Shown one piece after another: positions 1,831 through 51,677 of a stretch of DNA of 64,000 nt. Position numbers and translations under genes: made by a program. The notes below the pieces were generated by a model that did not search any database, had not been told where the DNA came from, and saw only the letters and a list, made by a program, of their open reading frames with translations. The number at the start of each line of letters is the position of its first letter. Within the stretch, counting starts at the first letter, position 1. The stretch spans positions 103,665-167,664 of the IMG/VR virus record IMGVR_UViG_3300014208_000031; one strand, 5' to 3'. The DNA is from a virus.

Positions 1831-2478
1831 CTAGATTTCTATCGAATAAAACTGTTTCCAGAGTATTTTAAAACACAATTCAATGTCTTTTAGGCTGTCA
1901 TGTAAGTCTTCTTCTTTAAATTCTATGTTAAAGTGTCGGGCGCAAGCAGTTTGAGATGTTTTTAACCCGCGTTTAATGATAGTGGAAAGTTTATATTGCC
2001 AAGCTAGAAAATTAGACAAATCCGGTTGAAGACCTAAAAGGATCGCTTTTTGTATTAAATTTGTGTCGATAATTCGGTCAATATATGAATAATCTGGTTT
2101 TTTATTCAACGTTCTTCTCAAATTATTTAATTGATAAATATCAAATCCAAGAAAATTGGCTCCTACGATTCTATAATCCTTGTTGTAGAGATATGATTCA
2201 AAATGATTTAAAATTGGTTCTGGCGGCTGTTTTAACTCATTATAGCGGTTTTGGTCAAACTTTGTAATCCGCGCGGCGTCCTTGCTTATTTGAAAATTCG
2301 GTATATCCAAATAATAATTATGTTTTTCTAAAATGTTTTTACCTTCACAAATTAAATAAGATAATTGAAATGGTCTAGAAAAATAGAGGTTGAGACTTTC
2401 TGTCTCAGTGTCGGCGACCAGATACTTCTGTTTGTCTTTGAACCTCAATAAATTTTGACCTAAATCGGATAAACTCAT
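1831..2478 (-). CDS. DEDDh 3'-5' exonuclease (DNA Pol III epsilon-like)
   Basis: ADTETE (ExoI), NFLGFD (ExoII), HDSLKD (ExoIII). Confidence 0.85.
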   Translation of the reverse strand: MSLSDLGQNLLRFKDKQKYLVADTETESLNLYFSRPFQLSYLICEGKNILEKHNYYLDIPNFQISKDAARITKFDQNRYNELKQPPEPILNHFESYLYNKDYRIVGANFLGFDIYQLNNLRRTLNKKPDYSYIDRIIDTNLIQKAILLGLQPDLSNFLAWQYKLSTIIKRGLKTSQTACARHFNIEFKEEDLHDSLKDIELCFKILWKQFYSIEI

Positions 2479-2795
2479 TGCCAGTAAATATCTAAATAGT
2501 AAACCAAATCTACAAAAGGAATATCTTGTTCATATTTCGGCCCGTCTCCATTGATTCGGTTTGACCATTTTTGAGTTTTAGAATCGTAAGCCAATCCGTC
2601 CCCAACATCTTCATTTCTTACCAATAATTTATGTTTGTAAATTTTCTTATTAGGATTTTCTTTGGACCATTCAACTAATTTATCTAAAACTTCCGATAAA
2701 TTATCTGGATTACTAGATTCGTATTTGTTAAATAATAACCCGTAGCCTTTCCAATGTTTTTTAAATCTTTCTAATTCTATAGTATCTTTATTCAT
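2475..2795 (-). CDS. hypothetical protein
   Basis: Operonic ORF with ATGA overlap to the next gene. Confidence 0.7.
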   Translation of the reverse strand: MNKDTIELERFKKHWKGYGLLFNKYESSNPDNLSEVLDKLVEWSKENPNKKIYKHKLLVRNEDVGDGLAYDSKTQKWSNRINGDGPKYEQDIPFVDLVYYLDIYWQ

Positions 2796-2801
2796 ATTTT
2801 T

Positions 2802-3083
2802 TTAAAACAAACAATCAACATCTTCCTTGTCTGCCGGGTTTTCAATTTTTGGCTCTTCTACCTTAAAATAACTAATATCGTATTTTATTACCCCGCAATC
2901 CCCGCCGTGTTCATATAAATCATGTTTAGCTCCAGTAATAAAAAGCATGAAATCTAACTCTTCTTCTTTAAAGAACGTTCCATCCTCTCCATTCCCGGCG
3001 GACCATTCCCATTTATCGAATCCTTTATAGATAACCCGGCGGCCAGATTTCATATTTTCTATTTGAAAAAGTGTTTTATTCAT
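2802..3083 (-). CDS. hypothetical protein
   Basis: Tightly packed ORF. Confidence 0.7.
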   Translation of the reverse strand: MNKTLFQIENMKSGRRVIYKGFDKWEWSAGNGEDGTFFKEEELDFMLFITGAKHDLYEHGGDCGVIKYDISYFKVEEPKIENPADKEDVDCLF

Positions 3084-3088
3084 AATTT

Positions 3089-3367
3089 TTAATATAATCC
3101 TTGTTTTCTCATTTTGTCAGAATAATCTATTGATTCATTATAGTGTTTCCGCCATTTTTCTCCATCAACCCCCTTGTCCGCGCGGCCTTTTCTAATATCT
3201 CGTTCTATTTCAAACTGAACTAATTCTAAGTCTCCGCCGTGATAACTGTTTATTTGATAAATTTTAGATGGTTTTTCACCTTCAATTTTATAGATTAAAC
3301 CCTGACACCCGCTTGGTAAAATACAAAACATAAATTCATAGGTTTTGCCGTTAATTATTCTTTTCAT
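3089..3367 (-). CDS. hypothetical protein
   Basis: Tightly packed ORF. Confidence 0.7.
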   Translation of the reverse strand: MKRIINGKTYEFMFCILPSGCQGLIYKIEGEKPSKIYQINSYHGGDLELVQFEIERDIRKGRADKGVDGEKWRKHYNESIDYSDKMRKQGLY

Positions 3368-3561
3368 TAATTTTTGTTTCCATTTAAGTAAAACTCTTCT
3401 TCGTTTTTAGCGCAGCGTGGGCAAATCCAACCAGAATATTCGCAGGTAAATTCAGTATCGGGAGTAAAATCTAATCGGGCGCGGCCACCTTCTTCTAGTT
3501 CCTTGTGGGCTATAAATCTACCGCAAAAATCACATTTTATTAGATTATTATTAGTTTTCAC
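3367..3561 (-). CDS. small zinc-finger protein
   Basis: CDFC...CPRC pairs. Confidence 0.65.
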   Translation of the reverse strand: MKTNNNLIKCDFCGRFIAHKELEEGGRARLDFTPDTEFTCEYSGWICPRCAKNEEEFYLNGNKN

Positions 3562-3719: not shown

Positions 3720-4210
3720 ATTAAACTTCTTTCTCTAATCAATTCTTGTTTTTTGTTTGAATAATATTGGTTATATCTTTCTGATTTGTCGGGAAATTTG
3801 AGAACGGGCGGCGAAGTATAAAAAGTCATATACCCGGAACATATTCCAGTGGCATAAAATGGTTGTGGCGTTTCATTATATCTTTTTTCTTCGGACTCTG
3901 CCCAATCTTTTGATTCATTTTCTATAACCCACATTTCGGGTTCAGTTAATTCACGGTTTTTAGTATATTTGCTAAAATCTGTAATTTTTACAAATGTATC
4001 ATTATCTAAGTGTTTAAAAACTGTGGCGTCACGAGGCTTTATATTAGTTATTTTAAAATCATTGTCAATTAAGCTTTCAAAAGATGGATACATATTCAAA
4101 AAACTAAATTGAGTTGCGGAATAACCAACCACCATAGGCGGTTTTGGATGTTTTCTTTCGTAAGCAGAAATCCGCGCGGCCTTCCATGATTCTAATAGTC
4201 TTTGTAACAT
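3710..4210 (-). CDS. hypothetical protein
   Basis: Tightly packed ORF. Confidence 0.7.
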   Translation of the reverse strand: MLQRLLESWKAARISAYERKHPKPPMVVGYSATQFSFLNMYPSFESLIDNDFKITNIKPRDATVFKHLDNDTFVKITDFSKYTKNRELTEPEMWVIENESKDWAESEEKRYNETPQPFYATGICSGYMTFYTSPPVLKFPDKSERYNQYYSNKKQELIRERSLIWK

Positions 4211-4213
4211 AAT

Positions 4214-4831: not shown

Positions 4832-4832
4832 T

Positions 4833-5081: not shown

Positions 5082-5311
5082 TCTAAGTTATATCCTTTTG
5101 CTTGAGCCGTAGGGTCGTTCAAATTACTGAATTCATTCTTTAGTTTATTCAAAGTTTTTAAGTCCGCGCGGCTTTCATCTGGATTGATATACAAAAAATG
5201 CTGAATATTTTCTGATAACCATCCTTCTAAAAATTCTTCTTGATCTTTATTTCTAGATAAATTGTTGCAAGATTGCCAAATGTCTATTAAGTTAGATAAT
5301 TTATCTGTCAT
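5078..5311 (-). CDS. hypothetical protein
   Basis: Tightly packed ORF. Confidence 0.65.
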   Translation of the reverse strand: MTDKLSNLIDIWQSCNNLSRNKDQEEFLEGWLSENIQHFLYINPDESRADLKTLNKLKNEFSNLNDPTAQAKGYNLE

Positions 5312-7950: not shown

Positions 7951-8223
7951 TTAAGCTAAAACAGGCTCACCCAATTCTTTAATTTCAATACTATTGGCTA
8001 ATTGAGTTAATTTATCCGCCAAATTTAGCAAATCTTCTTTAGTTACAGTATTTAAAACAATTTTAGTAGAAAAAGTTTCGTCCGTTCGTTGCCGCGCGGA
8101 TATTTCCAGCGAGTTATAATTATAAGGAACAGTTTTCTTGCCAACCTTAAAAGAGCCTTGTGAGTTATTTAACGTTAAATCAATTATTGTGTCGTATTTG
8201 TTTATTGTGGTTTGTGTTTTCAT
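7951..8223 (-). CDS. hypothetical protein
   Basis: ORF downstream of a sigma70-like promoter. Confidence 0.65.
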   Translation of the reverse strand: MKTQTTINKYDTIIDLTLNNSQGSFKVGKKTVPYNYNSLEISARQRTDETFSTKIVLNTVTKEDLLNLADKLTQLANSIEIKELGEPVLA

Positions 8224-8288: not shown

Positions 8289-9158
8289 TTAAACTTTTTT
8301 ATCTTTCTCCAAAAACGGAGAAACGGCATTGGGATATTTTTCAATAATCTCGGCGGCTTTTTTATTCATTTCTTTTACCCATCCTTGTTTTACTTTCGGC
8401 GGGCGATCATCTACCCAATTTTCCAATAACATAGAATCTCTTAATACTACTAAACATGCTATTGCTTTTGTTACGTGACTTAACCCTGAATCTTCATCAA
8501 TATCCTCTCCTTCAAACCAACTTGTTATATGTCTGAAAATTGCGTCATAGTACACACTGGCTCTTACTCCACATGATCTATAGTTATGACGACCATATTT
8601 TCGCGCTCCTTCTAATAGAGCTAAACCAACTTCGGCGATAACAGGCGCGGGGACTGTGGAAAATGGAACTTTTTTTACGCCCACGGCATCTTTTGGATTT
8701 GTTTGTTTAGTTTTGTCGTTTAAAATTTCAAACTTTTCAGTTTCGTCTTCGTATTTAGTAGTTTTAGTATCTAAAGTGTGAGAGATTGAATTTATTACTC
8801 CTGATATATTTTCTTTACAATTATTGCAATAAAAATAACCATCTCCAATAAAATCATCTATAAAAAATCCTTGTTTGCAAAGATGACAATAAATTTCTTT
8901 ATCATATTTTGGCGGCGGAGGCGGCGGTAAAGTATTTCTCGGCGGAACATAGCTTCCTTTTGAAAGACAATTTTCTAGTCCATTTGAATTATAACATTTA
9001 TAACAAATAAAAATTCCATCTTTAGTAATTCCTAATCCAGATTTATCCCCGCATTTACATGTTTGGTATGGTTCCATATTTTTCTTAATATTTTCTATTT
9101 GTAATATTCTTGTTAAAGTTTTACCAAGTTGCCGCGCAGCTAAGATTATTTTATTCAT
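8289..9158 (-). CDS. dATP/dGTP diphosphohydrolase (DUF5664-like) with N-terminal Zn-ribbon/Pro-rich extension
   Basis: TNPKDAVG..GARKYGRHNYR..YYDA..RH..WFEGEDIDEDSGLSH motif set; CxC/CxxC pairs and PPPPPP in the N-terminal half. Confidence 0.8.
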   Translation of the reverse strand: MNKIILAARQLGKTLTRILQIENIKKNMEPYQTCKCGDKSGLGITKDGIFICYKCYNSNGLENCLSKGSYVPPRNTLPPPPPPKYDKEIYCHLCKQGFFIDDFIGDGYFYCNNCKENISGVINSISHTLDTKTTKYEDETEKFEILNDKTKQTNPKDAVGVKKVPFSTVPAPVIAEVGLALLEGARKYGRHNYRSCGVRASVYYDAIFRHITSWFEGEDIDEDSGLSHVTKAIACLVVLRDSMLLENWVDDRPPKVKQGWVKEMNKKAAEIIEKYPNAVSPFLEKDKKV

Positions 9159-9302: not shown

Positions 9303-9680
9303 TTATTTTTCACAATCACATTTAGTATGTCCGCAAGTTTCACATAATTTACCATAACTAGCCTGATATTGACTAATTGAATTACCGTTAAATCCGTGGC
9401 GTTGGGCCGCGCGGACTTCTAATAAATACAAACTGTTGTGAATATTATTTATAATACTTATATTCTCAGGACAAGGTATTTGATTTTGTAAATAAACAAT
9501 TCGGTCTAGAACTGCGCGGAGAACACTTTGAATTGTAGTTCCGGGATAACTATTTTTATTTCCGGGGAATCGTTCTGGATTCTTTTCGTCGTGTCGTTTA
9601 ACAAAAGTTAATGTTTGATCTAAATCTCCATCTAGAGTTAAAAGTTTATATTTGTGGCCGGGATCAATTATTTTTATCAT
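9303..9680 (-). CDS. Acb2/Tad1-like putative nucleotide-sponge protein
   Basis: GTT.Q.VL..VLDR..YLQ.Q.PC.EN...L.LLE.R resembles the Acb2 (T4 Vs.4) helical hairpin. Confidence 0.55.
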   Translation of the reverse strand: MIKIIDPGHKYKLLTLDGDLDQTLTFVKRHDEKNPERFPGNKNSYPGTTIQSVLRAVLDRIVYLQNQIPCPENISIINNIHNSLYLLEVRAAQRHGFNGNSISQYQASYGKLCETCGHTKCDCEK

Positions 9681-14693: not shown

Positions 14694-15695
14694 TTAAGTA
14701 TTCTTGCTTTTTCTTGTTTCTAGTGGTAATCCCAGTCTTATTTTAATTTTTTTGGTTAAATAAGAATTAAGATTGACGATTCGCGCAGATTCTTTAAAAG
14801 ACTTTCCAGAGTCCAAAAGTTCTTTTACTTTTTCAAATTTCATTTCTGCTTTTTCATAATATGTTATATGGTTAACATTAATGTTGTCCCATTTCCTCTT
14901 CATAATAGGAAGATTGAGTTTTATCGCACATTTCTTTAGCTCCCTAAGAATCGGGAACTTATGCATAATCAAAATTATACAATTGTCTTTTCGATTGGGT
15001 GGAGAAACGCGAACAGTTAAATTAAATATTGATTCTATCTTTTCTTTTAGAGCTGCAAAAAAATCGCCCCAATTTTTATGACAACAAACCTGTATTACTA
15101 CAGTGTTATTTTTTTTCTTATGAATGCATCCGTCGCCATCTATCAAACCAATTAAAAAAGATAAAAATAAGTCATTGGGTAAACTTTTATAAAACTGGAA
15201 GTTTTGTGGTGGATATAGTGTTTTATTCTGCTGTAAGTCAAATTTATCCTGAATTTTAAAATAGTTTTTATTATCGTTTCCCTGTAATGAAGACTGCACC
15301 GAATATTTTATTTCATTTTTATATTCATGCGAATGTTTGTGTGAATAAAAATTAAACTTAACATTTTCAAAAGCATTCTTTAACCATTCGGTATCTTTTT
15401 CATTTACCGAAATACAAATTCCGCCAGACTTAGTAAAACATCCATCAGCCGCGATAAAACCCATTTGATAATAAGCTAACGGGGTTTCTAGTAAAAGGTT
15501 ACTTAATTCACATGTTCTATTATATGCTTCGGTGATTTCGGGATTCTTTTTTAAGCCTAAACGACGTGCTCTTTTATGAATTGCAACTACAGATCGGTCG
15601 GGGAATAATTTAGTTAATTCTTGATGTGTGGCATCAAAATAGAATTTTCTTAATGTGTTGTCTTCTTCTGTTGTATAGTCTGGATTTTTTGCCAT
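14694..15695 (-). CDS. LAGLIDADG homing endonuclease with N-terminal HTH
   Basis: MGFIAADGC and LIGLIDGDGC motifs. Confidence 0.85.
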   Translation of the reverse strand: MAKNPDYTTEEDNTLRKFYFDATHQELTKLFPDRSVVAIHKRARRLGLKKNPEITEAYNRTCELSNLLLETPLAYYQMGFIAADGCFTKSGGICISVNEKDTEWLKNAFENVKFNFYSHKHSHEYKNEIKYSVQSSLQGNDNKNYFKIQDKFDLQQNKTLYPPQNFQFYKSLPNDLFLSFLIGLIDGDGCIHKKKNNTVVIQVCCHKNWGDFFAALKEKIESIFNLTVRVSPPNRKDNCIILIMHKFPILRELKKCAIKLNLPIMKRKWDNINVNHITYYEKAEMKFEKVKELLDSGKSFKESARIVNLNSYLTKKIKIRLGLPLETRKSKNT

Positions 15696-16143: not shown

Positions 16144-16868
16144 AAAGCGTCCGCCGAATAGTGTTCCAGCATCGTCATAATATCTTTTTTCATATAATCG
16201 ACTTTGATAATTTCTATTTTCTTGTCCGCCGGATTCACCCAAAAGATATTTAGATTTTTATTAACGTTATAGCCCTGTAAAGACAAAAGATAGGAATATA
16301 AGCTTAACTGAAGAGAGTATCTTGTGATCGCATCGTTTTTCAGATGATTTAACGGATATAAAAGTTTATTGTAGGCTTTTTTTGTCAAAGACTCATTTGT
16401 TTTGAGGTCGCAAATTCTTATTTCATTTTTATCTTTATTATACTCCACAAAATCACTCAAACCAGACACGAGTAAATCTTTAGAATAGACAAGAACTTCC
16501 GAAAAAACCGGATATTCAAATGTTGGATAAATATCATTTTTGAAATTTTCTACTATTTCTTTATTCGCGGATTTCCTTATTTTTTTAGTGTTAATAAAAT
16601 GTTCTATTTCTGCGTGTACTGCCGAGCCGTATAGACAACTTAGATCGCGCTTATCGTTCCAGCGCTTTCTTAAAACTTCTTTATCTATTCCTTCACGTTT
16701 TGCACACATCGTAAGAATAATCCCAGATTCGTCGAAGGGAATTTCATATAAATGTATAAGTTGCGAGACTGAGATATATTTATTATTTTCTTTGTCTATG
16801 TAGCTGTGATCGTCCGCGTGAAACGTGACAAAATCTTGCTCAAATGGATTTTTAGGTTTTCTTCCCAT
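16140..16868 (-). CDS. PD-(D/E)xK exonuclease (Cas4/RecB-like)
   Basis: GSAVH..E, SE..VSGLSD, ICDLKT, YSLQLSLY. Confidence 0.8.
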   Translation of the reverse strand: MGRKPKNPFEQDFVTFHADDHSYIDKENNKYISVSQLIHLYEIPFDESGIILTMCAKREGIDKEVLRKRWNDKRDLSCLYGSAVHAEIEHFINTKKIRKSANKEIVENFKNDIYPTFEYPVFSEVLVYSKDLLVSGLSDFVEYNKDKNEIRICDLKTNESLTKKAYNKLLYPLNHLKNDAITRYSLQLSLYSYLLSLQGYNVNKNLNIFWVNPADKKIEIIKVDYMKKDIMTMLEHYSADAF

Positions 16869-18124
16869 TATAGTAATATTTCTTGGATTCTATTTTTTGC
16901 TATTTCGCAATATTCTGGATTAAGATCAAATAAAATGTAATCTCTTCCTAGTTGTTTGACTACTAAACCCACGCTGCCCGCGCCGCCAAATGGATCAATT
17001 ACAACACAAGGCTTAATTTCGTCAGTCTCGCATTTGCAATCTTTTTTCCAACCAACTGTTTTCTTTTCTACCATTCCGGCGAGAATCCGGGCTTTGACTT
17101 CACTAGCATTTTGAACATTATTTTTTTTAAATTCTTTAGTTGCTTCGCAGAGATATTCACCGTTTGAATCCGCGCCACAAAGTCTTTTATGTTCTTCGTC
17201 CGCGCGACCTTTTTCTATTATTCTTGTATATGGTTTACCGCAATTAAAACAGCAACCATATTCACTTGTTCCGGCTAAAATACATGGTTCAATAAGTTTG
17301 GTGGCCATTACAGCAAAATGTGCTCCCCTAAAACTTTCGGGATTTATTGTCCAAACCGATCTAATATTTCTTTTAGAAGACATTAAGGCTCCCATTTCGG
17401 CGCGGCTAATTCCCTTTTTACCTTTTCCGTGGCGATCTTCTTTAGAAAATATATTTAAATCTGATCTTGTAGATTTTTGTTCTTTTGCTTTTTTTATACA
17501 ATCCAAAGTATAAGGATTTGTAGTTTCTTCTGCAACTGCTTCATTATCATAATAATACTTAGTTCCTTTAGTTAACATAAAAACAGTTTCATGAGATTTA
17601 GTCGGGCGGTCTTTGCAGCTTTCTGGCATACAACTTCCTGAATATTTGTTGTTAAAACTAATTCCTTTAGCCCAAATAATTTCACTTCTAACTGTCCAGC
17701 CCCAATCTTGGAGTGCAAATGCTACTCTCCAAGGAACACCTATTAAATCTTTAGGTTTTAAACCGGCGGGGACTTTTGATCCTTTTCCCTCAACTGACTG
17801 AGCTACTCCCTTGTTTGCTCCCTTGTTACTGGCAACTTGATAAGTTCTATTAGCTGCATAACTATCTCCTAAATTCAAATATAAAATTCCATCGTCTCGT
17901 AAAACTCTATAAACTTCCGAAAAGATTTTTACTAAATTGTCAATATATTCTTGTAAGGATTCTTCTGCTCCAATTTCTAAATGTTTATTAGGATCATCTT
18001 TGGATAAATAAGAGCGTAAAGAAAAGTATGGAGGACTCGTCACGCAAAGTTGTATGGATTTATCATCTAACTGTTTGAGTAAGTCTAAATTATTTCCACA
18101 GTAAATCTTATTTAATTCAAGCAT
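16868..18124 (-). CDS. N4-cytosine/N6-adenine DNA methyltransferase (beta class) with Zn-finger insertion
   Basis: TSPPY, NLGDSY, HFA, DPFGGAG; ATG 18124 (MLELNKIYCG) preferred; CFNC..CKC insertion. Confidence 0.9.
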   Translation of the reverse strand: MLELNKIYCGNNLDLLKQLDDKSIQLCVTSPPYFSLRSYLSKDDPNKHLEIGAEESLQEYIDNLVKIFSEVYRVLRDDGILYLNLGDSYAANRTYQVASNKGANKGVAQSVEGKGSKVPAGLKPKDLIGVPWRVAFALQDWGWTVRSEIIWAKGISFNNKYSGSCMPESCKDRPTKSHETVFMLTKGTKYYYDNEAVAEETTNPYTLDCIKKAKEQKSTRSDLNIFSKEDRHGKGKKGISRAEMGALMSSKRNIRSVWTINPESFRGAHFAVMATKLIEPCILAGTSEYGCCFNCGKPYTRIIEKGRADEEHKRLCGADSNGEYLCEATKEFKKNNVQNASEVKARILAGMVEKKTVGWKKDCKCETDEIKPCVVIDPFGGAGSVGLVVKQLGRDYILFDLNPEYCEIAKNRIQEILL

Positions 18125-18140
18125 GTTGTAATATATATTT

Positions 18141-18734
18141 TTATTGGTTGGATTCGTAGAATGCGCGACAAAACCCCATCGGGGTAATCGAACGAAGCAT
18201 TTTGGTCTTCTCTGACTTCCCGCCGAGTCTTTGCAAATGTGAGCCTTGAGGACAGCTACGAATGGGTTCAACCATATTTGTTGGTTCTGGAAAATTAAAT
18301 CGGCCCCAAAGTCCAGTTTTTTTACTATAAAAATCTCCGTAAAAATAAGGCTGGAAATATCTCGGCCCCAACTCTTTCATTTCTGGAATTAATCTATTTA
18401 TCCGCCCGACGGGATTTTCAATAGCATAAAATTTAGGGTTTAGTTTTTTAATTATTTCTAAAGTTCTTTTAATTAATTTAATACTATATTCTGTTCTGCC
18501 GTCCAAATCCTTGTCTTTGAACCATCGCGCGCCGCTAACGGCAAAATTATCGCAAGGCGGCGCGGCCAATATTCCATAAACATCATCAGGGTCTAAATCA
18601 TTTAACCAAGAATCATCAAAAACATCATGACCATATTTTATATTAATTTGAATACACGGATAACCGTTTTGACGATATGGTAATACCCAATTTCCGCTGT
18701 AATCAAACAGCGATAAAATTACTTTATTTAACAC
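18141..18734 (-). CDS. short C5-cytosine DNA methyltransferase-like protein
   Basis: LSLFD.SG, AAPPC, ENPV, KKT.LWG, RSITP.GF. Confidence 0.8.
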   Translation of the reverse strand: MLNKVILSLFDYSGNWVLPYRQNGYPCIQINIKYGHDVFDDSWLNDLDPDDVYGILAAPPCDNFAVSGARWFKDKDLDGRTEYSIKLIKRTLEIIKKLNPKFYAIENPVGRINRLIPEMKELGPRYFQPYFYGDFYSKKTGLWGRFNFPEPTNMVEPIRSCPQGSHLQRLGGKSEKTKMLRSITPMGFCRAFYESNQ

Positions 18735-24652: not shown

Positions 24653-24724
24653 CCAAAATTATATCCTTTTCTGGATTCCGCGCGGATAACTCTTTTTAAG
24701 AAAACTTAATGGAATCTAAAAAAA

Positions 24725-25024
24725 CTAATCTTCGTCTTCGTCTTCAAACCGATCACAATCTGGGTCATGTCCGCCATTCATTCCTAGAAAATCTTGAGTA
24801 GATGAAATTTCTTCGGCTGCATTTATCCCTCCGATAAAATTTGTAGCATAGGCTCTAATTCCAATTTCATTTATCGTATCGGAAAATTCCGCGCGGACAT
24901 CTGGCTCGCCATTATTAGAATAAAATATTATATAATTTCCATTTGTGCATTCGCTAATTTGTTTTAGTAGTGACTCTGGAAATTCAAAAAATCCATCAAT
25001 CGGGTCAGTAAATTTTTTACTCAT
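24725..25024 (-). CDS. hypothetical protein with acidic tail
   Basis: Packed ORF. Confidence 0.7.
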   Translation of the reverse strand: MSKKFTDPIDGFFEFPESLLKQISECTNGNYIIFYSNNGEPDVRAEFSDTINEIGIRAYATNFIGGINAAEEISSTQDFLGMNGGHDPDCDRFEDEDED

Positions 25025-30379: not shown

Positions 30380-31204
30380 CTAAAACTTATATCCTTTAGT
30401 TGAGGATTCTGTAATAACTTTAGGTATAGGGAGTTTATTTTTTTTAAACCAAATTTCATTAAATTGAACAGAATTAGTTAATTCATCCCATTTATAAGAA
30501 CAGCCGTCGCCATTTAAAGTTGGCTTTTTATCAGAACTCCACCGGGTATTTTGGTATAAAATTTTATCACGGCTCCGAGAATTTGAAAGCCAAGAAAGGT
30601 GCTTAATCGGAATATTTATAGTCTTATTCTTTAAAATATTTTGATCAACTAATTGCTTGTCAGTGCCATATTCAAACAAAATATTATTGTCATAATTAAA
30701 AGAATTTAATTTAAACGGCGGACAATCTACCTTCCAAATCCGCGGAGGAGTAAATAAGTCTGCTAAATACTGATTTTCCGTTTGGTAATAGTTTCTCAAT
30801 GAGAGTCTAAACCAATTAGTTTCTGGATTATTTTCAACGTATTCTACTATTTCTTTTATTTGCTTTAAGGTAAAAAGCTCATCAGAGGCGTCTAAAAGTA
30901 TGATCGTGTCGCAGCCAGCTTCCAAAAGAGGTTTCAATGCAAGATTCCGCGCGGCGGCTTCGCTTAACGGTTTATCACTTATGTTTAAATAACTTATTGA
31001 TCCATTATTATAATAATCAGTTAGTTTTCTATGGGTTCCGTCTTTGCTTAAAATAGGATTTCCTAAATCAAAAAATTCCTGAAAACACGAATGGACTACA
31101 GAAATCTTACTGTTATTTTTTAAACTGTATAAAATAAATGGACTTAATGATTTATCTAGAAAATCTGAACAATCATAAGCCGCTGCCAAAAATCCAGTTT
31201 TCAT
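30380..31204 (-). CDS. glycosyltransferase, GT-A fold (GT2-like)
   Basis: AAYD, ARNLAL, LLDASDE, HLSW. Confidence 0.65.
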   Translation of the reverse strand: MKTGFLAAAYDCSDFLDKSLSPFILYSLKNNSKISVVHSCFQEFFDLGNPILSKDGTHRKLTDYYNNGSISYLNISDKPLSEAAARNLALKPLLEAGCDTIILLDASDELFTLKQIKEIVEYVENNPETNWFRLSLRNYYQTENQYLADLFTPPRIWKVDCPPFKLNSFNYDNNILFEYGTDKQLVDQNILKNKTINIPIKHLSWLSNSRSRDKILYQNTRWSSDKKPTLNGDGCSYKWDELTNSVQFNEIWFKKNKLPIPKVITESSTKGYKF

Positions 31205-31638: not shown

Positions 31639-32844
31639 TTATTTTATATCCTTTGCGTCGGCGTATTCCCACTTAAAACCATACCAAGTTTTTCTCTTTC
31701 CCTTACAGGCTGTTGATAGATTTTTATTTTTAACGCCTAAATAATTAGCTGCTTCCTGTAAGCTATTAAAAATATTAATAACTTCGTTTGTATTTTTATC
31801 AATTTGTTTAACTTTTTTGCGTTTTGGAGAAATGGTAGATTCAAGGGCGCAATTTGGGCATCCCCTTCCTTGTAAATGACATTTTGGTGTTTGCTGGAAT
31901 TTTATATTACAAGGTTTACATTGAATTTCCATTTTGGAATTTCTCTTTGAATATGTTGATTCGTTATACATATATTTATAATTATGTATCAAATTTGCTT
32001 TATCAAGAAACGACTGAAACGTTTTTCGTGCAGGATAATTTTGAGACAAACAGATTTTGCATCCTTCTTTACCCTGTAAATGGCTACCTCTATTCTGAGT
32101 AAATTTTAAATTATGAATTTTACAAGTTAAATTAGTAAACAGAATATTATTTTTTAGTTCAAAATCATGATAGTAGTATTTATCTCCAAATATATCCATA
32201 CTTTTCTCTGTAAAATCTTGCAAACTCATCATTTTTGTTTCCGATGCTCTTTCATTTTTACATAAATTACAACCTTGACCAGCGATATGTTGCACGGCTT
32301 TCTGATAAAAAAATTTCTGACACCGTTTGCAAAAAATTTCTATCTTATTTTTATAGCCCGTATAATTTACTCTTGAATAATCATATTTATCATCATGAAT
32401 AAATTTACATCTCTCGATAAAATGATTTCGGGTTTCTCTTTTACCAAATTTAGTTCTTAAAACATCTTCTTCGCAAGAATGTATGATTTCGCCGCCAGGA
32501 GTCTTATTATACCCAAAATCAGAATCATTAGATTTATATCTTTTAATGTAATGTTTTTCTAAATCAAGAAGTTCTAAATTAGAACAATTTTCATGTTTAA
32601 CATAAAAACCAAAATCTTCTGGATTGTAAAATCGTATGGCATTCATAACATGCAGATTATGTCTTTCATATTTTAGCCAGTCATTTTTATATCTTTGGTT
32701 AAAAGTTTGAACTGTTTTACCAACATAACATTTACCATTTATCTTGTTAAAAATTAGATATAATATTCCTATACTATTTTCTAATTGAAATTGAGATGCC
32801 GGGATTAAAGATAATAAATCTTGAATTAATTCATCTGTTGACAT
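31639..32844 (-). CDS. GIY-YIG homing endonuclease with zinc-ribbon repeats and NUMOD1 domain
   Basis: ILY..NKINGKCYVGKT, GYNKTPGG, three C..H..G.GC..C repeats, FNSLQEAA..GFKWEY. Confidence 0.85.
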   Translation of the reverse strand: MSTDELIQDLLSLIPASQFQLENSIGILYLIFNKINGKCYVGKTVQTFNQRYKNDWLKYERHNLHVMNAIRFYNPEDFGFYVKHENCSNLELLDLEKHYIKRYKSNDSDFGYNKTPGGEIIHSCEEDVLRTKFGKRETRNHFIERCKFIHDDKYDYSRVNYTGYKNKIEIFCKRCQKFFYQKAVQHIAGQGCNLCKNERASETKMMSLQDFTEKSMDIFGDKYYYHDFELKNNILFTNLTCKIHNLKFTQNRGSHLQGKEGCKICLSQNYPARKTFQSFLDKANLIHNYKYMYNESTYSKRNSKMEIQCKPCNIKFQQTPKCHLQGRGCPNCALESTISPKRKKVKQIDKNTNEVINIFNSLQEAANYLGVKNKNLSTACKGKRKTWYGFKWEYADAKDIK

Positions 32845-33014: not shown

Positions 33015-33887
33015 TTAACTTAAAGAATCTATAATATTTTGCGCTACTTGTTTTGGCGAAAATTGTTGTTGATATATTATTGAAAGTGGTTTACAAATCC
33101 CTTCAACTAAATCTTCATAATAAAAATCTAGTTTCTGAATTTTTTTATAAATTTCATCAACTTCTGGTTTAGCAATAAAAGCGTGAGGACAAAATTCAAA
33201 GGCTGTAGGATTGTCTCCTAAACAAATGGGAATGGATGAACCACAAATACTCTCAGGTATTGGTAGGCAAAGTCCCTCCACCGATCCCAAGCAAAATACA
33301 TATTTAGTTTTGTTATAAACTTCATTTAGTTCTTCGTCGTTTAAGATTCCTAAATGTTCTATTCCATCAACTCTCATATCTTCGCCGCCGACCGAAACCG
33401 CGCGGATATTTGGAATAGTTTCTCTAAATTTGTTAATGACTTCAATTCCCAATCTGGTTCGTTTATTTGGGTCTAAATTTCTTCCAATAAAAGCAAATTC
33501 TATAGATTTTTTAAGATTAAGATTTGTTATTGGTTTAATTGGTTGATATATGCAATGAGCAGTTATTCCAAATTCTTTTAAAATCTGTTCTTTGACTGTC
33601 TCGGAAATAGTTGTTACTGCACTTGCTTGAAGAAGTCGCTCCTTGCATTGTTTAAAATCGCTTGACTTCCAACAGTGGAATGGTAAATCTAACACGTTTT
33701 GGATGTATTTAACCTTATATGATATATGTTCTACGATGGTAGTATAAATCTGTTCAAAATCATTATTATAAATTACATCCGCAAATTCCGATTCGCTAAC
33801 TAATTCATGACCCAAATCTAAAAATCCTTTATCAATTCTAGAAATCTGATCGGCGTAAAATCGCGCGCCATATGTTTTAATTTTCAT
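33015..33887 (-). CDS. glycosyltransferase family 4-like (GT-B)
   Basis: FIGR..NKR, EGLCLPIPE (EX7E). Confidence 0.75.
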   Translation of the reverse strand: MKIKTYGARFYADQISRIDKGFLDLGHELVSESEFADVIYNNDFEQIYTTIVEHISYKVKYIQNVLDLPFHCWKSSDFKQCKERLLQASAVTTISETVKEQILKEFGITAHCIYQPIKPITNLNLKKSIEFAFIGRNLDPNKRTRLGIEVINKFRETIPNIRAVSVGGEDMRVDGIEHLGILNDEELNEVYNKTKYVFCLGSVEGLCLPIPESICGSSIPICLGDNPTAFEFCPHAFIAKPEVDEIYKKIQKLDFYYEDLVEGICKPLSIIYQQQFSPKQVAQNIIDSLS

Positions 33888-36429: not shown

Positions 36430-37158
36430 TTATCTAATTTCGTATTCTCTAACAAAGAAATTATGTCTAATAATCCCGTTGTATCTAATTATCCATTTCT
36501 CAAAATTTGGGAACTCTTTATATCTATATCCATTATTTAATCCCGCGAGATGAACAACTAAATCTCCATGCTCGTAATTAACATTCCATTCACGATCTTT
36601 CATTAGAGGATGATAATGTGAATTAATCGAACGAGTGGGCAAAAACTTAAAATGACTACTTTCGTTTGGATTATTATTATAATACTTTATAATAGCAGAT
36701 TGTTCAAAAAAACAATTTGGTCTTGGCTCGGCAAATTCAGGATCATTCCATATTTCTCGTAAAAACTTTTGTGTCCACGGAGTATTTCTATAAATGATAG
36801 AGCCGGTATTTAGATGTTTTATATCATTTTTATAACAAGTAAAAAATACATCATGATCTTGATCAACAATAGATTCGAGTTTAATATTTTGATTCATTAT
36901 CATCAAATCGCTGTCAAAAGTCCAAATATACGAAAAATCTTGTAAATGTTTAATTGCTAAATCAATTTTTCCCCACGAAGCCGCGCGGCTTTTGTTAAAT
37001 TCATCAGTTATTAAATAGTTATAATCGTTAGCCTCACAATACGAAATAATACTTTTTGAGGTAATTTTAGATATTTCTTCATAAGTGGGCGCGCCGGGCG
37101 GATGCGCTCCTTGATCAAATACTGAGATTATTAAAAAAGTTGATTTATTTAACGACAT
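36430..37158 (-). CDS. GT34-like (GMA12/MNN10) glycosyltransferase
   Basis: R.ASWGKI, WTFDSD, LNTG, EQSA, VHLAG. Confidence 0.8.
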   Translation of the reverse strand: MSLNKSTFLIISVFDQGAHPPGAPTYEEISKITSKSIISYCEANDYNYLITDEFNKSRAASWGKIDLAIKHLQDFSYIWTFDSDLMIMNQNIKLESIVDQDHDVFFTCYKNDIKHLNTGSIIYRNTPWTQKFLREIWNDPEFAEPRPNCFFEQSAIIKYYNNNPNESSHFKFLPTRSINSHYHPLMKDREWNVNYEHGDLVVHLAGLNNGYRYKEFPNFEKWIIRYNGIIRHNFFVREYEIR

Positions 37159-46210: not shown

Positions 46211-47513
46211 ATTGTTTTAATACCTTTTCTAAATAATCTAATTCTTCATTTTCTTCATAATGGGGCGCACACCCCAAAAATAGAACAGAACGAATTACTT
46301 CCGTTGAATTCGGAAATTCTCTAAAATCGCCAAGGAATTTATAGCCTGGATGTAATAATAAATTACCACTGAAAAAGTTTCTGCATTGAACTTTATTTTG
46401 AATTTCTAAATAGTTAACCAACCTTTTCTTTTGCTCGTGATTTTCACATATAATTCCAACTCCAAACCAAGAAGTGTCAGATTCGGCGCGCTCAATAGGA
46501 AATTTCAACGATGGAATATATTTTTTTAATAAATCTTGGATAATTTTATGGTGATTTTTACGCTTGGTATGGATTTCGTCAAACTTTTTTAGTTGTTCTA
46601 ATCCAATCGCTCCTTGAAATTCTAAAGGCTGTAAATTATATCCCATTTTAGTAAAATAATATTTATCGTCGATAGTTACATCGGGTAATTCTTCAATCCA
46701 ATTACTAAAACGTTTTTTACACATTCCATTAGGTAATAAATTTTGAAGCCCACGGCATCGACAATTCCTACTCCACATAACAAATTGACGGCAAATTTCT
46801 ATAAATTCTTTAGTAGAAGACGAAATCATCCCTGCCTGAATACAACTGAGATGATGGCTGGCAAAAAATGAACAGGTAGATGCAAAAAAGTATTCATTAA
46901 GATATTTTCCGCGCCATTTAGTTCCAATACCGTCACAATTGTCCAATAACAGCACTAGATGGTGTTTTTTAGCTATTTCGACTAATCTATCCACATCACA
47001 ACAATTTCCCAATGTAGGGGCAAATAATATTGCTTTTGTTTTATGGGTAATCTTTGACTCAATTTGATCTAAATCCATATTTAAATCCTCCATAGAAATA
47101 TCCACGAAAACTGGTTTTAATCTATTCTGATAAATTACGGAAACAGAAGTTGGGAACGCGCAAACCGAACAAATTATTTCATCATTCTCTCCCCAATTAA
47201 AATAATCTTTAGCGGCAGCAAACATGACTAAATTTGAACTACTACCACTGTTCGTCATTAAAGAATAATCAATATTTATTTTTTTACTAAATTCATTTTC
47301 AAACCTAACAACCGCTTCTCCAGAAATTGACCATTCAGAAAATATCAAACTTTCCAAGGCCGCGGCTAATTCATTATTATCCCAATAAAATCCAGAATAT
47401 AAAACCTGATTATTAAAAGGTCTTAAATTATGAGCAAAGCGGGGTAAAACCCCATATTCACCTTTTAATTCGTCAATAAACTTATTGATTTTATCTCGGA
47501 TTTCGGCGGACAT
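46197..47513 (-). CDS. rfbH: DegT/DnrJ-family PLP enzyme, RfbH/DdhC-type 3-dehydratase
   Basis: NSGSSSNL, SFFASHH (His in place of the Schiff-base Lys), CRC..C..RF Fe-S-type motif, GYNL, GNLLLHP. Confidence 0.75.
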   Translation of the reverse strand: MSAEIRDKINKFIDELKGEYGVLPRFAHNLRPFNNQVLYSGFYWDNNELAAALESLIFSEWSISGEAVVRFENEFSKKINIDYSLMTNSGSSSNLVMFAAAKDYFNWGENDEIICSVCAFPTSVSVIYQNRLKPVFVDISMEDLNMDLDQIESKITHKTKAILFAPTLGNCCDVDRLVEIAKKHHLVLLLDNCDGIGTKWRGKYLNEYFFASTCSFFASHHLSCIQAGMISSSTKEFIEICRQFVMWSRNCRCRGLQNLLPNGMCKKRFSNWIEELPDVTIDDKYYFTKMGYNLQPLEFQGAIGLEQLKKFDEIHTKRKNHHKIIQDLLKKYIPSLKFPIERAESDTSWFGVGIICENHEQKKRLVNYLEIQNKVQCRNFFSGNLLLHPGYKFLGDFREFPNSTEVIRSVLFLGCAPHYEENEELDYLEKVLKQYGEI

Positions 47514-47665
47514 ATTAAAATTTAACTAAAAATTTAACTGAGTTTTTAGTCGAGAATACTTTTCCAAATTTCCAGTCGCCATTTTCTCCGAATTTAGCTT
47601 TGATCGAATCGCCAAATTTAATATCTTTGAAGTATGGTAAGGTAGAAAATTCCCAAAGCATAAAA

Positions 47666-48355
47666 TTAACCTTCAAATTCTCCAGCTAACACTCTTTTAC
47701 AAGTTTCAATAAACAATTCTTCATGTTTTGGATTAGGACACTGAGAACAGTGAAACATCATATTTTGACCATAAAAGTTACCAAATCCTAGAAAACAGCT
47801 AGAATCCAGTGGTGTATTGGGATCAACTACATAATTTGGATATAAGAGTGAAACACAAAACCCCAATTCTTTAGCTTTATATGTAATTTCTTCACTGGTA
47901 TCGGAACGGGGAATAAAATGGTCACAATCTGGGCGGCCAAGTTGGTTAAACAGTTTTGTAGAATAGGCTAATGTAGCTTGACTGGCATACGCATTTACTA
48001 CACCCCTGTCTGTAAACTTATGATTACTCATCCAAGCGTGTCCGAAAACTGTAATTTTGTTTTTAATCATACTATAAATAAAATCCATAGCATCTTCTCG
48101 AAGGAATAGTGCATCGTTGTCAATCCAGAGATAATAATCTGGTTTTATGCTATCAATAGTTTGAGAAATAACATAATTCATCATCTGTCCGTGGGAAACG
48201 CCGGGGAAAGGGCATTCTAGATAATTAACAGGTAAATTCCAGTGATCTACCATAATTTTCTTACTCCACGCAGTTACATTTTCTGATCTATTTTTTCCAT
48301 AGAGGCAAATGATTAGAATTGTCTCCCCATTAATATTTAATAATTGTAAATTCAT
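47666..48355 (-). CDS. putative glycosyltransferase (GT-A)
   Basis: SHG, WIDNDA DxD motif; glycan-island context. Confidence 0.55.
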   Translation of the reverse strand: MNLQLLNINGETILIICLYGKNRSENVTAWSKKIMVDHWNLPVNYLECPFPGVSHGQMMNYVISQTIDSIKPDYYLWIDNDALFLREDAMDFIYSMIKNKITVFGHAWMSNHKFTDRGVVNAYASQATLAYSTKLFNQLGRPDCDHFIPRSDTSEEITYKAKELGFCVSLLYPNYVVDPNTPLDSSCFLGFGNFYGQNMMFHCSQCPNPKHEELFIETCKRVLAGEFEG

Positions 48356-48935: not shown

Positions 48936-49421
48936 CTAGATGGGGAAATTTAAATAAGCAAATTCTTTAAATAGCTCTTTTGCTTTTGAGTCGTAAGCCT
49001 TAGCTGCCTCCTCTGGAGAATTAAATGTTCCAATGTGAATTTTTTCGTTGTTAAATGTAATACCCGCCTGAAATTTATCTCTCATTTTCCAAACCCCTTT
49101 AAGTCCTATAGTATTGTTTGTTTTAATACCGTAATTTCTACCATTTTCAGCGTGCGTGGAAATTCTGAGATTAATTTTTTGGTTGTTTAACGGATTTCTA
49201 TCCTTGTGGTCTATTTCCATAAAATCAATATTATTATTTTTAGACATTATTTCTCGATGTAGCATTTTATACTTATTCGATTTATCAAAAAACAATCTAA
49301 CATACATTAATTTTCCTGATCTTGATAAAGCCAAACGATAATTTTTTATCCATTCGTAATCTTCGTCATCTACTAAGCATTCAAAAATTTCTTTATTATA
49401 TGTTAGTTGAATTACTACCAT
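48936..49421 (-). CDS. HNH endonuclease with AP2 domain
   Basis: VDDED, LHREI, DHKDRNPLNNQKINLR, GLKGV..AAKAYD..A..FAYLNF. Confidence 0.9.
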   Translation of the reverse strand: MVVIQLTYNKEIFECLVDDEDYEWIKNYRLALSRSGKLMYVRLFFDKSNKYKMLHREIMSKNNNIDFMEIDHKDRNPLNNQKINLRISTHAENGRNYGIKTNNTIGLKGVWKMRDKFQAGITFNNEKIHIGTFNSPEEAAKAYDSKAKELFKEFAYLNFPI

Positions 49422-50059
49422 TTTATATCTACAATATCTAAATTGGCAATAAACATTACATCCGCTCCCCCATCCTGCTCTGTATATTGTTTTATAATGG
49501 CAAATCTATTTTTCATTTTAGCTAAAGCAATTCTTACACCATTATACATTTCATTATAATCATCAAGAAGTAAAAATGGAATTTTTAAAGCTAAACAAAT
49601 ATTAAGATCAATACAAACACTAGGTTCCCAATGGCACCCATCGACATAAGCCAATTGATAAGGTTCAATACTTAAATCTCCATCAATTGCGGCGGCTAAA
49701 CTTCTTTTGTGAACAAACCTAAATCTATCTTTATAATTTTGATAAACACTTTCCACGGCGGCTAATTGAACACTATCTCCGCCGATTTCCTCTGGTCTGC
49801 CTACTGAATGTAAATAATCATTGGTTGGATTATCCATAAATGGATCGACTGAGGTTAATTTAGATTTGAATTGCTTAGATAATTCTAGAAGCATATTTCC
49901 GCTCGACCCACAAAAAAATCCAATTTCAAGTATGTTCTTAGGTTTAACTAAATCAATAACTTCTTTAAATATTTCAGCGTGTGAATTTACTGAACTGCAT
50001 CCGCCGGTTTTACATCTATCTATTACGCTTTGTAGCTCTAATTTTTCGTTTTCTGTCAT
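49415..50059 (-). CDS. class I SAM-dependent methyltransferase (Methyltransf_24-like)
   Basis: LEIGFFCGSS, YVDGCH, LDDY. Confidence 0.8.
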   Translation of the reverse strand: MTENEKLELQSVIDRCKTGGCSSVNSHAEIFKEVIDLVKPKNILEIGFFCGSSGNMLLELSKQFKSKLTSVDPFMDNPTNDYLHSVGRPEEIGGDSVQLAAVESVYQNYKDRFRFVHKRSLAAAIDGDLSIEPYQLAYVDGCHWEPSVCIDLNICLALKIPFLLLDDYNEMYNGVRIALAKMKNRFAIIKQYTEQDGGADVMFIANLDIVDIKW

Positions 50060-50079
50060 AAAAATATATATCCTTTAGT

Positions 50080-50859
50080 TTATTGAACTTTCTCTAAAGT
50101 ATCATCTGGCCCGTTATTTCCTATGTGAAGTGCGCGGATATTTTCAGAAGAGTGGCTCCAAAAGGGTTTAATGTTATTACTAATAATATTATATTTTTCG
50201 GGATTAAATCCTACTTGAAGTCGTTTCCCTATTTCGGCAAATAGCATTTCTACATTCATTTGTTGATTTCTTAAAAATGGCAAAATTTGGTCCTTACTTG
50301 CTAAAATATATTGAAGAATAATAGATAAATCACGTTTTTTAATTATGTGAGGATTTAAACTGAATAATTCTCCTTGCTTTTTCCAGCTATCATCAACTTT
50401 TTCCATTGATTTAAAATGTTCAAACTCGTTGATTTGGCGGGGGATACGAACTTGTAGAACTTCGGAATTGGATTTTAATAAATTTATGGACTGTTCCAGC
50501 CAAAATTCTAAAGTATTAGAAATTGGTTTAATTTTCCAGTCGTCTTCAAGGTGAAAAATATAATCAGTTTTAATTTCGTTAAAAACAGTAAAAATATCTT
50601 TTAATTGCTCAACTGAATGGCTCCCATGCCATCGCCTCCAGTCGGCTACAGTTTTCAAAACTCTATATCCATATTTAATAAAATCTTTTTCCATAGTCTC
50701 TGCGAATTCTTCCTCTCCCGGCCTGATTTTAATATGCACGATCTTGTCGGCAAAATTAACCTTATGAGTTTCTAAATCTTGAATTGTTCTTAAATAGCAA
50801 TCTTTAGAACTCCAGTGGCCATTGGAAACTGAGTATAAGCAAAGGGTTAAACTATTCAT
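50080..50859 (-). CDS. putative glycosyltransferase (GT-A)
   Basis: YIFHLEDDW, FSLNP, HIG. Confidence 0.65.
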   Translation of the reverse strand: MNSLTLCLYSVSNGHWSSKDCYLRTIQDLETHKVNFADKIVHIKIRPGEEEFAETMEKDFIKYGYRVLKTVADWRRWHGSHSVEQLKDIFTVFNEIKTDYIFHLEDDWKIKPISNTLEFWLEQSINLLKSNSEVLQVRIPRQINEFEHFKSMEKVDDSWKKQGELFSLNPHIIKKRDLSIILQYILASKDQILPFLRNQQMNVEMLFAEIGKRLQVGFNPEKYNIISNNIKPFWSHSSENIRALHIGNNGPDDTLEKVQ

Positions 50860-51677
50860 TATTCTAAATTAAGACCATGTTCAATCACTTCTACATATTC
50901 CAACTCTTTAATATCTGTAGCAACATTTTCTTGATGATTAGAATATCCTTCCCAAATCTTTTTCCAGTATTCTTTTCCGTGACTTGCTTTTCTCTTTAAA
51001 TCTAAGTAGGACTCATGAACCGTTACTGGAAAGAAGGATAAATATTTTGCATTTTCTGGTTTTAGATATTCATAAGGGACGTATTGAGCAAATTTCCCTA
51101 ATTGTCCGTCAGCCGTCAACCCTTCAGTGCAATCTGACATTTTTGTGTTAAAATATCCATTTCCTAATTCTGCTTGCGGGATAACTCCACGGCTTTTAAT
51201 TGTATCTTTATGAATCCTGAATTTCTGTCCTATATTACAGTTTTTTCTAATGGTTTTTATAGACCCATATAAATCTAAGCTGGGGATTAGAAATCCATCC
51301 CATCTACTATCCATATCCTTAGTTAATAATTCTACTGCTTGGTCCCAGAATTTCTTTTGTGAGGGAATAAAAAATTCATCAAAATCCATTAAAATGCGAA
51401 TGGAGTTTTTTGCTTGTTCTAGAGCCGCTGTCTTAGTTAGACCATCAATACGATTATTAGAATAAGAAATATCGGTTTTTATCAATTCTAAATTTGGGCA
51501 TTGTTTTTGTAATTTTACCAATTCTTCCCACGTATTGTCTTCGCTTGTATTGACTGCAATAACTGTTTGGCCGCGCGGGCCAACAAAATCACACCAATTT
51601 TTTATATTTTTTTCATAATTAAATGAAAATCTACAAATATTGTATCCAGCCGAATATACAGTTGTGGGAACATTCAT
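50859..51677 (-). CDS. glycosyltransferase family 2-like
   Basis: VNTSEDNT, LMDFDE; ATG 51677 preferred. Confidence 0.7.
   Translation of the reverse strand: MNVPTTVYSAGYNICRFSFNYEKNIKNWCDFVGPRGQTVIAVNTSEDNTWEELVKLQKQCPNLELIKTDISYSNNRIDGLTKTAALEQAKNSIRILMDFDEFFIPSQKKFWDQAVELLTKDMDSRWDGFLIPSLDLYGSIKTIRKNCNIGQKFRIHKDTIKSRGVIPQAELGNGYFNTKMSDCTEGLTADGQLGKFAQYVPYEYLKPENAKYLSFFPVTVHESYLDLKRKASHGKEYWKKIWEGYSNHQENVATDIKELEYVEVIEHGLNLE

Follow-up and report, generated by a model that had tools for sequence, protein, structure and literature searches.

The window analysed here is a stretch of 64,000 nucleotides that makes up the final 64 kb of a phage contig of 167,664 bp (IMG/VR record IMGVR_UViG_3300014208_000031, designated G000), and its subject is the all-G/C palindromic octamer CCGCGCGG together with the short all-G/C runs, or micro-islands, scattered through this AT-rich genome. 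A first-pass annotation had located 13 copies of the octamer, with starts from 2269 to 51571, at an estimated G+C content of ~28%. All 13 starts are confirmed and no further copies are present in the window, whose G+C content is 31.9% when measured; the 167.7-kb contig holds 25 copies. Dinucleotide shuffles of the window (n = 100) give a mean of 0.13 copies with a maximum of 1, and a zero-order model gives 0.025. The 13 copies, listed without strand, are as follows.

2269–2276, CCGCGCGG copy in the DnaQ-like exonuclease gene, frame 1 (AAR)
3178–3185, CCGCGCGG copy encoding GRAD
4172–4179, CCGCGCGG copy encoding AAR
5164–5171, CCGCGCGG copy encoding SRAD
8092–8099, CCGCGCGG copy encoding SAR
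9407–9414, CCGCGCGG copy encoding VRAA
11231–11238, CCGCGCGG copy encoding IRAA
24678–24685, CCGCGCGG copy between called genes
24889–24896, CCGCGCGG copy encoding VRAE
30947–30954, CCGCGCGG copy encoding AAR, within a 12-bp all-GC run
33398–33405, CCGCGCGG copy encoding IRAV
36981–36988, CCGCGCGG copy encoding SRAA
51571–51578, CCGCGCGG copy encoding PRG, within the 13-bp run GGCCGCGCGGGCC

As had been claimed, the octamer occurs in every reading frame and also between genes. Specifically, 24 of the 25 contig copies lie in called genes, distributed over the frames as 3, 10 and 11 and encoding AAR/SAR (xAAR), xRAx and PRG, and the copy at 24678 is intergenic. The one-mismatch T-CGCGCGG forms are found at 22709, 24562, 34104, 40934, 44948 and 45084, and the CCGCCGG/CCGGCGG examples are likewise present, one of them at 16226 instead of 16227. 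When synonymous codons are shuffled genome-wide, the 24 copies in coding sequences (CDS) compare with 0.52 (maximum 3), and under tighter constraints, with every amino acid kept linked to the two bases that open the following codon, shuffling still yields only 3.5 copies (maximum 10). Because the enrichment outlives both shuffles, it is real and its source is neither protein sequence nor codon usage, and the earlier proposal that the pressure acts on DNA, independently of reading frame, rather than on protein or translation holds. The octamer also proves, as had been proposed, to be part of a broader set of CCG/CGG-rich micro-islands, which a run-length census defines as follows.

1–64000, no strand, 335 all-G/C runs of 6–15 bp, part of 941 in the contig

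Against a zero-order expectation, all-G/C runs of at least 6 bp number 335 versus 46 in the window and 941 versus 148 in the contig. They occur in every 10-kb bin of the contig at similar density, approximately one per 180 bp. Within coding sequences, 902 islands are observed versus 366 under synonymous shuffling, and runs of at least 9 bp number 165 versus 31; island starts are balanced over the three frames (313/313/276), and sense and antisense counts of the words match, for example CCGCCG 106 versus CGGCGG 127. Non-coding DNA carries 41 islands versus 3 expected, some of which are likely terminator stems or lie inside uncalled genes.

The gene for the class II ribonucleotide reductase (RNR), aligned by codon with seven homologues, serves as a worked example of how the islands are built.

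53088–55511, minus strand, class II ribonucleotide reductase gene

The 11 islands of this gene fall on the conserved motifs KRRGG, GRRGALM, KYGRRNI and IAPTG, with no indels, and every island codon aligns with codons of the full-length homologues. At these motifs other phages use AGA, GGT, GCT and CCA, whereas G000 uses CGC, GGC, GCC and CCG. The islands therefore arise by silent-site choice where the protein permits, chiefly at Gly/Ala/Pro/Arg motifs.

This silent-site choice depends strongly on the neighbouring bases. The G/C fraction at fourfold sites is 0.16 where no neighbour is G/C and climbs to 0.81 where four or more G/C bases flank the site on both sides, and a fourfold site next to an A/T base still reaches 0.53, versus 0.16, when four G/C bases follow. 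In a logistic model, the weights of offsets ±1 to ±5 are 0.82, 0.36–0.51, 0.40–0.45, 0.24 and ~0.1; they are symmetric and fall monotonically, with no 3-nt period and no peak at ±3 or ±6, and interrupted G/C also counts. Silent-site G/C goes up, to 0.55–0.81, in every one of the 16 pairings of two consecutive SS codons, so the effect is not motif-specific, and the dependence is found in all eight fourfold codon families and with all following dinucleotides. The strength of the neighbour effect, expressed as the sum of the ten weights, is 4.0–4.2 throughout four genome regions that differ in gene class. Taken together, the data show that the probability of G/C at a silent site grows additively with the G/C bases within ~4 bp, on both strands, in all frames and gene classes and in non-coding DNA. 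Outside the window, a region of ~60 small genes at contig 1–24000 has a fourfold-site G/C of 0.45, versus 0.29–0.32 elsewhere, and the highest island density of the contig, at an unchanged strength of the neighbour effect.

These data bear directly on a translational cause, in which rare GC-rich codons would be clustered, or Gly/Ala/Pro/Arg codons adapted to the tRNAs available in a GC-rich host. As this explanation predicts, codon families that open with two G/C bases do use G/C-ending codons more often (33–45% versus 7–30%). However, island starts are spread over all three frames, positions ±1 and ±2 have the greatest influence on the wobble base with no peak at ±3/±6, the words are strand-symmetric, islands are found in non-coding DNA too, and the structural-gene region (24–84 kb) is somewhat below expectation, with 277 islands versus 330. 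A translational origin is accordingly very improbable.

The distribution of the trait among phages was followed by the ratio of observed to expected all-G/C runs of at least 6 bp, in contigs that share several genes with G000 and in comparison contigs fetched via the RNR gene. The ratio is 6.3 for the G000 contig, 4.6 for G002 (the contig of L007), which has 32 genes in common with G000 including those for terminase and DnaE, 5.0 for G003 and 2.1 for L043, the last two also sharing several genes with G000. The single close relative returned by a metagenome search, a 1.4-kb contig from Hainich groundwater (L070; 90–97% identity), reaches 8.4. The reference AT-rich phages T4, Pelagibacter phage HTVC008M and Staphylococcus phage K, by comparison, have ratios of 0.72, 0.42 and 0.22 and coefficient sums near 0. 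Contigs with only RNR in common mostly give 0.15–1.7, a few short ones reaching 2.0–2.7 on counts of 4–6; for most of the AT-rich viral or metagenomic contigs obtained via RNR the range is 0.15–1.6, again with coefficient sums near 0. The trait is thus not seen in more than 20 other AT-rich phage contigs, nor in the three reference phages, and other DnaE-encoding phage contigs, with 42–50% GC, show no excess of all-G/C runs. G002 and G003 differ in vocabulary, with CCGGCC favoured. The trait is inherited within one groundwater phage clade, and being lineage-specific it is heritable. An unrelated 153-kb landfill phage with 28% G+C, G001 (IMGVR_UViG_3300037067_022020), has a ratio of 2.95 with poly-C and CCGCCG as its top words, and may be an independent or weaker case of island excess.

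A comparison at identical motifs in G002 and G003 detects no significant sharing of islands, at low power, and IMG/VR holds no closer relative above 59% identity in RNR and none for DnaE. The same phage was found at 99.97–100% identity, with 1–6 differences per 18 kb, in four independent samples. Since it was assembled in each of them, the island pattern is no assembly artefact. One of the four, JGI sample 3300037810, was taken from a groundwater well on a landfill in Southern Ontario (bioRxiv 10.1101/2024.05.30.596742). Public read sets with this phage are JGI 3300037810, ENA ERZ27249449, SRR18595301 and SRR6484324, and ERZ1292644 contains the 90% relative from Hainich. A 224-kb contig from the JGI sample (Ga0376277_0000436) and an ENA contig are 99.97–99.99% identical to G000 and extend beyond window position 64000; the extension (L072:1–2241, L071:1–2241) is absent from the 167.7-kb contig and carries 7 islands versus 1.1 expected. 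Approximately 56 kb are apparently missing from the 167.7-kb contig despite its CheckV rating of 100% completeness. Searching genome contigs for the host with the RpoB-like protein and with GDP-mannose dehydratase of the phage returned nothing useful.

The composition of the islands follows simple rules. Enrichment of a word over the shuffle follows its CpG count (CCGCGC 8.9x, CGCGCG 8.7x, CCGCCG 7.5x), and CpG-free words stay at or below 1x. Inside the runs, the choice between C and G shuns homopolymers: GG_GG takes C in a ratio of 145:14, and CC_CC takes G in a ratio of 45:5. Enrichment tracks CpG because CCC and GGG are avoided, as CpG-free all-GC words must consist of G-runs followed by C-runs. 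A CpG-specific process was therefore rejected, the CpG trend being a by-product of CCC/GGG avoidance, and all SS/SS contexts raise G/C alike.

HIP1 (GCGATCGC) is a highly iterated palindrome of cyanobacteria that is linked to a cognate methyltransferase (PMC6105098), and the octamer had been annotated as an iterated palindrome of this kind. This reading is not upheld. Within all-G/C runs, the 25 copies of CCGCGCGG compare with 26.9 predicted from its two 7-mers; in a maximal-order Markov ranking the octamer is outside the top 8-mers, its excess accumulating from all-G/C 4-mers, and non-palindromic 8-mers reach similar frequencies (CGCGCGGC/GCCGCGCG 18/22, CGGCGCGG 15). Islands often begin with CCG and often end with CGG, and 57 do both; neither end depends on the other (odds ratio 0.94, p = 0.79), and 32 of the 575 even-length islands are palindromic. 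The octamer is the most frequent word that the grammar of the islands permits, since it combines a CCG start, a CGG end and an alternating middle and contains the one tolerated hexamer palindrome.

Far from being favoured, all-GC palindromes are depleted. In G000, only one of the eight all-GC hexamer palindromes, CGCGCG (93/90), is at parity with 5-mer expectation; the other seven fall short of it by 2-fold to more than 20-fold: GGGCCC (0/6.7), CCCGGG (0/21), CGGCCG (1/20), GCCGGC (2/31), GGCGCC (4/21), CCGCGG (27/61) and GCGCGC (37/75). Summed over all eight, G002 has 2 copies versus 41 expected and G003 has 6 versus 34. This depletion looks like a classical restriction-avoidance signature, and the shortage of GC palindromes in G000, with their near-absence from G002 and G003, suggests hosts in which GC-specific restriction systems abound.

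The sites had also been proposed as possible targets of two phage methyltransferases, whose genes lie side by side in the window.

16868–18130 (open reading frame possibly to 18271), minus strand, N6/N4-type DNA methyltransferase with an SPPY motif (PF01555, 2.4e-36; phrog_67; PDB matches to N6A and N4C enzymes)
18141–18734, minus strand, short C5-like DNA methyltransferase of 197 aa with PPC and ENP motifs (phrog_757, 2.9e-43; weak PF00145 match)

In this explanation the words would be methyltransferase or modification targets, kept or multiplied by protection linked to methylation or by very-short-patch-type repair, as proposed for HIP1. Besides the presence of the two genes and the linkage of HIP1 to a cognate methyltransferase (PMC6105098), it can draw on the fact that G000, with its extra C5-like gene, tolerates CGCG-containing palindromes better than G002 and G003: CGCGCG is at 93 versus 90 in G000, with GCGCGC and CCGCGG at ~0.5 of expectation, and G002 and G003 hold 0–1 copies of each versus 1.4–5.4 expected. 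G002 has a homologue of the N6/N4 methyltransferase and lacks the C5-like gene at the syntenic place, which matches the greater tolerance in G000 as a single correlation and no more; the short C5-like protein has no match in the G002 and G003 fragments available. On the other hand, the octamer is no more frequent than its sub-words imply, the enrichment extends to hundreds of different words, palindromes suffer depletion rather than being favoured, and G002, G003 and L043 carry the trait without a detectable C5 methyltransferase in the fragments available. Moreover, m5C would accelerate C-to-T decay instead of slowing it, and Vsr is not found in the phage: a search for PF03852 turned up a single sub-threshold match, of 17 bits and located within a homing endonuclease, and nothing in the relatives. 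The methyltransferase/HIP1 reading is thus poorly supported, and we regard it as improbable.

The placement of the islands shows no regularity. No regular spacing was found when gap statistics were compared with simulation; islands placed at random among the sites that the protein permits reproduce the observed gaps, with a slightly high variance-to-mean ratio. Island coverage is halved within the first ten codons of genes, and there seems to be selection against islands in places. Additionally, at least 11 genes of homing-endonuclease type stand out.

Window 14694–15695, 25017–26291, 31639–32844 and 48936–49421; contig 46565–48286, 49059–49976, 57086–58294, 58659–59537, 89589–91295, 91884–92600 and 102926–103912: homing-endonuclease-type genes (LAGLIDADG, GIY-YIG, HNH)

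All 11 are island-poor, with 21 islands versus 48 expected; their fourfold-site G/C is 0.225 versus 0.325, and the strength of the neighbour effect in them is only 1.7.

An origin of the islands as relics of a GC-rich ancestor, as imported DNA, as mobile GC clusters or as stems of RNA or DNA hairpins is hardly credible on these data, even though some paired islands between genes resemble terminator stems. Islands are free of indels, their density varies little from one 10-kb bin to the next, and complementary island pairs 3–30 nt apart are depleted (36 versus 55), which argues against hairpins. The amino-acid composition is that of a fully AT-adapted proteome (K 8.9%, N 7.4%, I 8.1%, A 4.9%), and because silent sites cannot predate such adaptation, the relic reading is contradicted. 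The organism is also mesophilic by proteome composition. GC clamps against heat were rejected as well, the proteome predicting 14–31 °C for four trait-bearing records and 39.5 °C for the trait-free G004.

The genes most relevant to a replication-based explanation are the following.

1831–2478, minus strand, DnaQ-like proofreading exonuclease subunit (phrog_192, 1.2e-15)
Contig 98845–102294, outside the window, DnaE-type Pol III alpha (PF07733/PF17657/PF02811)
56238–56732, minus strand, dCMP deaminase of the nucleotide-pool module (PF00383, 1.5e-14)
8289–9158, minus strand, MazZ-like protein with an N-terminal dATP/dGTP diphosphohydrolase domain (PF18909) and a strong PHROG match to 'endolysin; inhibits RNA polymerase'

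DnaE and the DnaQ-like exonuclease belong to a replication and recombination set with a UvsX-like recombinase, an Mre11-like exonuclease, DnaB and a Toprim primase. The nucleotide-pool module comprises class II RNR, dCMP deaminase, thymidylate synthase (ThyA), MazG, NUDIX, 5'-nucleotidase (NT5C) and the MazZ-like pyrophosphohydrolase; it would push the pools towards dTTP.

As the cause of the islands, we tentatively favour a substitution bias on duplex DNA that depends on neighbouring bases and reinforces itself. GC-to-AT decay would be suppressed, and/or AT-to-GC changes would be fixed more often, in locally GC-rich duplex; G/C would beget G/C, and composition would turn two-state at the base-pair scale. 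The molecular basis may be the phage replisome, consisting of Pol III alpha and a separate proofreading exonuclease and working under strongly skewed nucleotide pools. Proofreading and mismatch extension would respond to how stable the last ~4 bp are and to which nucleotides are needed next, with the DnaQ-like exonuclease and DnaE as candidate players in context-dependent fidelity, and restriction avoidance would afterwards prune the palindromes. A range of ~4 bp is reportedly what stability-dependent proofreading or mismatch extension at a primer terminus should give, as Petruska and Goodman in 1985 and Bloom et al. in 1994 are said to have described. We favour this bias because the effect is uniform over gene classes and decays smoothly with distance, with no motif and no spacing rule, and also because there is no detectable conservation of position (at low power) and islands are reduced in mobile genes and in the first ten codons. 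The island-poor homing-endonuclease genes fit a recent arrival of DNA that is being ameliorated.

Several points weigh against a substitution bias. The effect amounts to a 22-fold shift in odds, far above documented neighbour effects: in Plasmodium the neighbour effect is small (C3 10.2% versus 8.3%; PMC6206010), and with mismatch repair active, A:T-to-G:C changes in E. coli lean to AT-rich rather than GC-rich regions (PMC13250602). The effect is pinned on no particular enzyme. The unrelated G001 has no DnaE in its 70%-complete contig, yet shows a weaker excess, and the DnaE-bearing contig G008 shows little excess (ratio 1.6). The island-poor homing-endonuclease genes would equally fit selection that spares selfish genes.

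The main rival is selection, which would maintain the islands as A/T-free, maximally stable duplex stretches for a clade-specific DNA function, a possibility that we consider rather unlikely. With similar reservation, candidate functions would be anchors for RNA primers or hybrids in an AT-rich genome, or low-specificity protein-binding windows of ~8–10 bp. The fuller version, in which hundreds of stable 6–15-bp windows are a selected, clade-specific feature used as anchors (primer-template hybrids, loading points) by the replication and recombination machinery of the phage or by a GC-preferring protein, is a little more doubtful still. In favour of selection, the trait is clade-specific and other AT-rich phages are without it, the effect is very large for a mutational context, its ~9-bp range resembles a protein footprint or an RNA-DNA hybrid, and islands extend at their edges even beside an A/T base (0.53 versus 0.16); the selfish homing-endonuclease genes, moreover, have under half the expected islands. 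Selection is opposed by the absence of a motif, with SS contexts alike and island ends independent, by the absence of regular or minimum spacing, by the lack of detected position conservation in relatives (at low power) and by a uniform strength across gene classes. In addition, approximately one island per 180 bp is far beyond any known need, and no candidate binding protein was found. The idea of binding or loading sites, which had also been put forward from the sequence, survives as a loose compositional property and fails as a defined motif.

Base modification was considered from the gene content as well. A 2-aminoadenine (Z-genome) system was rejected: the MazZ-like domain is present but also occurs in a relative without the trait, and as the contig has no PurZ, no such system exists as far as visible. 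For 7-deazaguanine, no TGT/DpdA gene was found. A hydroxymethyl-base route was also rejected: the ThyA homologue carries the dUMP-type Asn and matches PDB thymidylate synthases at E = 4e-83, as a canonical thymidylate synthase should. This enzyme (contig 95154–96275, L005:15154–16275, minus strand) differs from solved structures by an N-terminal extension of ~30 aa and an internal insertion of ~35 aa (residues 232–265). DNA glycosylation was likewise set aside, the 367-aa protein beside RNR having a generic GT4-type glycosyltransferase fold without special likeness to the T4 DNA glucosyltransferases (model pLDDT 65). Its gene (57125–58228, minus strand) and that at 56725–57123 (minus strand), both of unknown family, lie in the nucleotide-metabolism block and are conserved in G002, G003 and L043. 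In the close relative from Hainich, a dUTPase/DCD-like gene (L070:379–798) replaces MazG (window 55658–56029) between a 65-aa open reading frame and RNR, a clean module swap with conserved flanks. The contig encodes one tRNA, tRNA-Leu(CAA) (L001:3397–3480), and the window none.

If the islands are mutational in origin, they would represent an unusually strong and long-range (±4 bp) neighbour effect under which composition is bistable at the base-pair scale. Such an effect would be passed on within a virus clade that encodes a Pol III-type replisome, offering a natural system that links fidelity, proofreading and nucleotide pools to genome shape. If they are selected, they would constitute a new type of signal, based on composition and superimposed on coding sequence approximately every 180 bp. 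In either case, a broader compositional process can throw up a striking repeated palindrome as a by-product, and the all-G/C-run statistic provides a simple marker for the uncultured groundwater phage clade of G000. A literature search found no description of base-pair-scale all-G/C islands at silent sites of AT-rich phages.

Comparison with known systems places the islands more closely. Like HIP1, CCGCGCGG is a GC-rich octameric palindrome far above chance that is spread by substitution through all frames and intergenic DNA of a genome with methyltransferase genes. HIP1 is singular, however, whereas CCGCGCGG matches its sub-word expectation as one among hundreds of enriched all-GC words, and palindromy has no positive role in the phage, where most GC palindromes are depleted. 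HIP1 is reportedly treated by Robinson et al. (in 1995) and by Elhai (in 2015). Restriction-site avoidance in phages is matched by the depleted GC hexamer palindromes of G000, G002 and G003; it accounts for gaps in the island vocabulary and not for the existence of the islands. Very-short-patch repair by Dcm/Vsr at CCWGG in E. coli is said, by Bhagwat and McClelland in 1992, to drive oligonucleotide skews, and a G:C-ward repair bias in a defined context could similarly inflate GC-rich words regardless of coding. The phage differs in that no Vsr was found and there is no single target word, and the trait is common to relatives without a detectable C5 methyltransferase. The GC clusters of yeast mitochondria, which are mobile insertions of 30–50 bp and mostly non-coding, are also short GC-rich elements scattered in a very AT-rich genome, but the phage runs are 6–15 bp long and lie inside codons, with no indels. 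A further likeness is to neighbour-dependent (N1-context) synonymous bias, attributed to mutation in, for example, Plasmodium (PMC6206010), and to the extended (±6 bp) mutational context effects of E. coli, which depend on proofreading and mismatch repair (PMC13250602): in these systems as in the phage, the silent base is set by adjacent bases across codon borders, for all amino acids and by simple DNA-level rules. In the phage, the range is ±4 bp rather than one base, and the effect is additive and self-reinforcing, is far stronger, spanning 16% to 81% G/C, yields discrete all-GC runs and is restricted to one phage clade. The islands are best filed as an extreme form of neighbour-dependent silent-site bias with an overlay of restriction avoidance, and not as a member of the HIP family.

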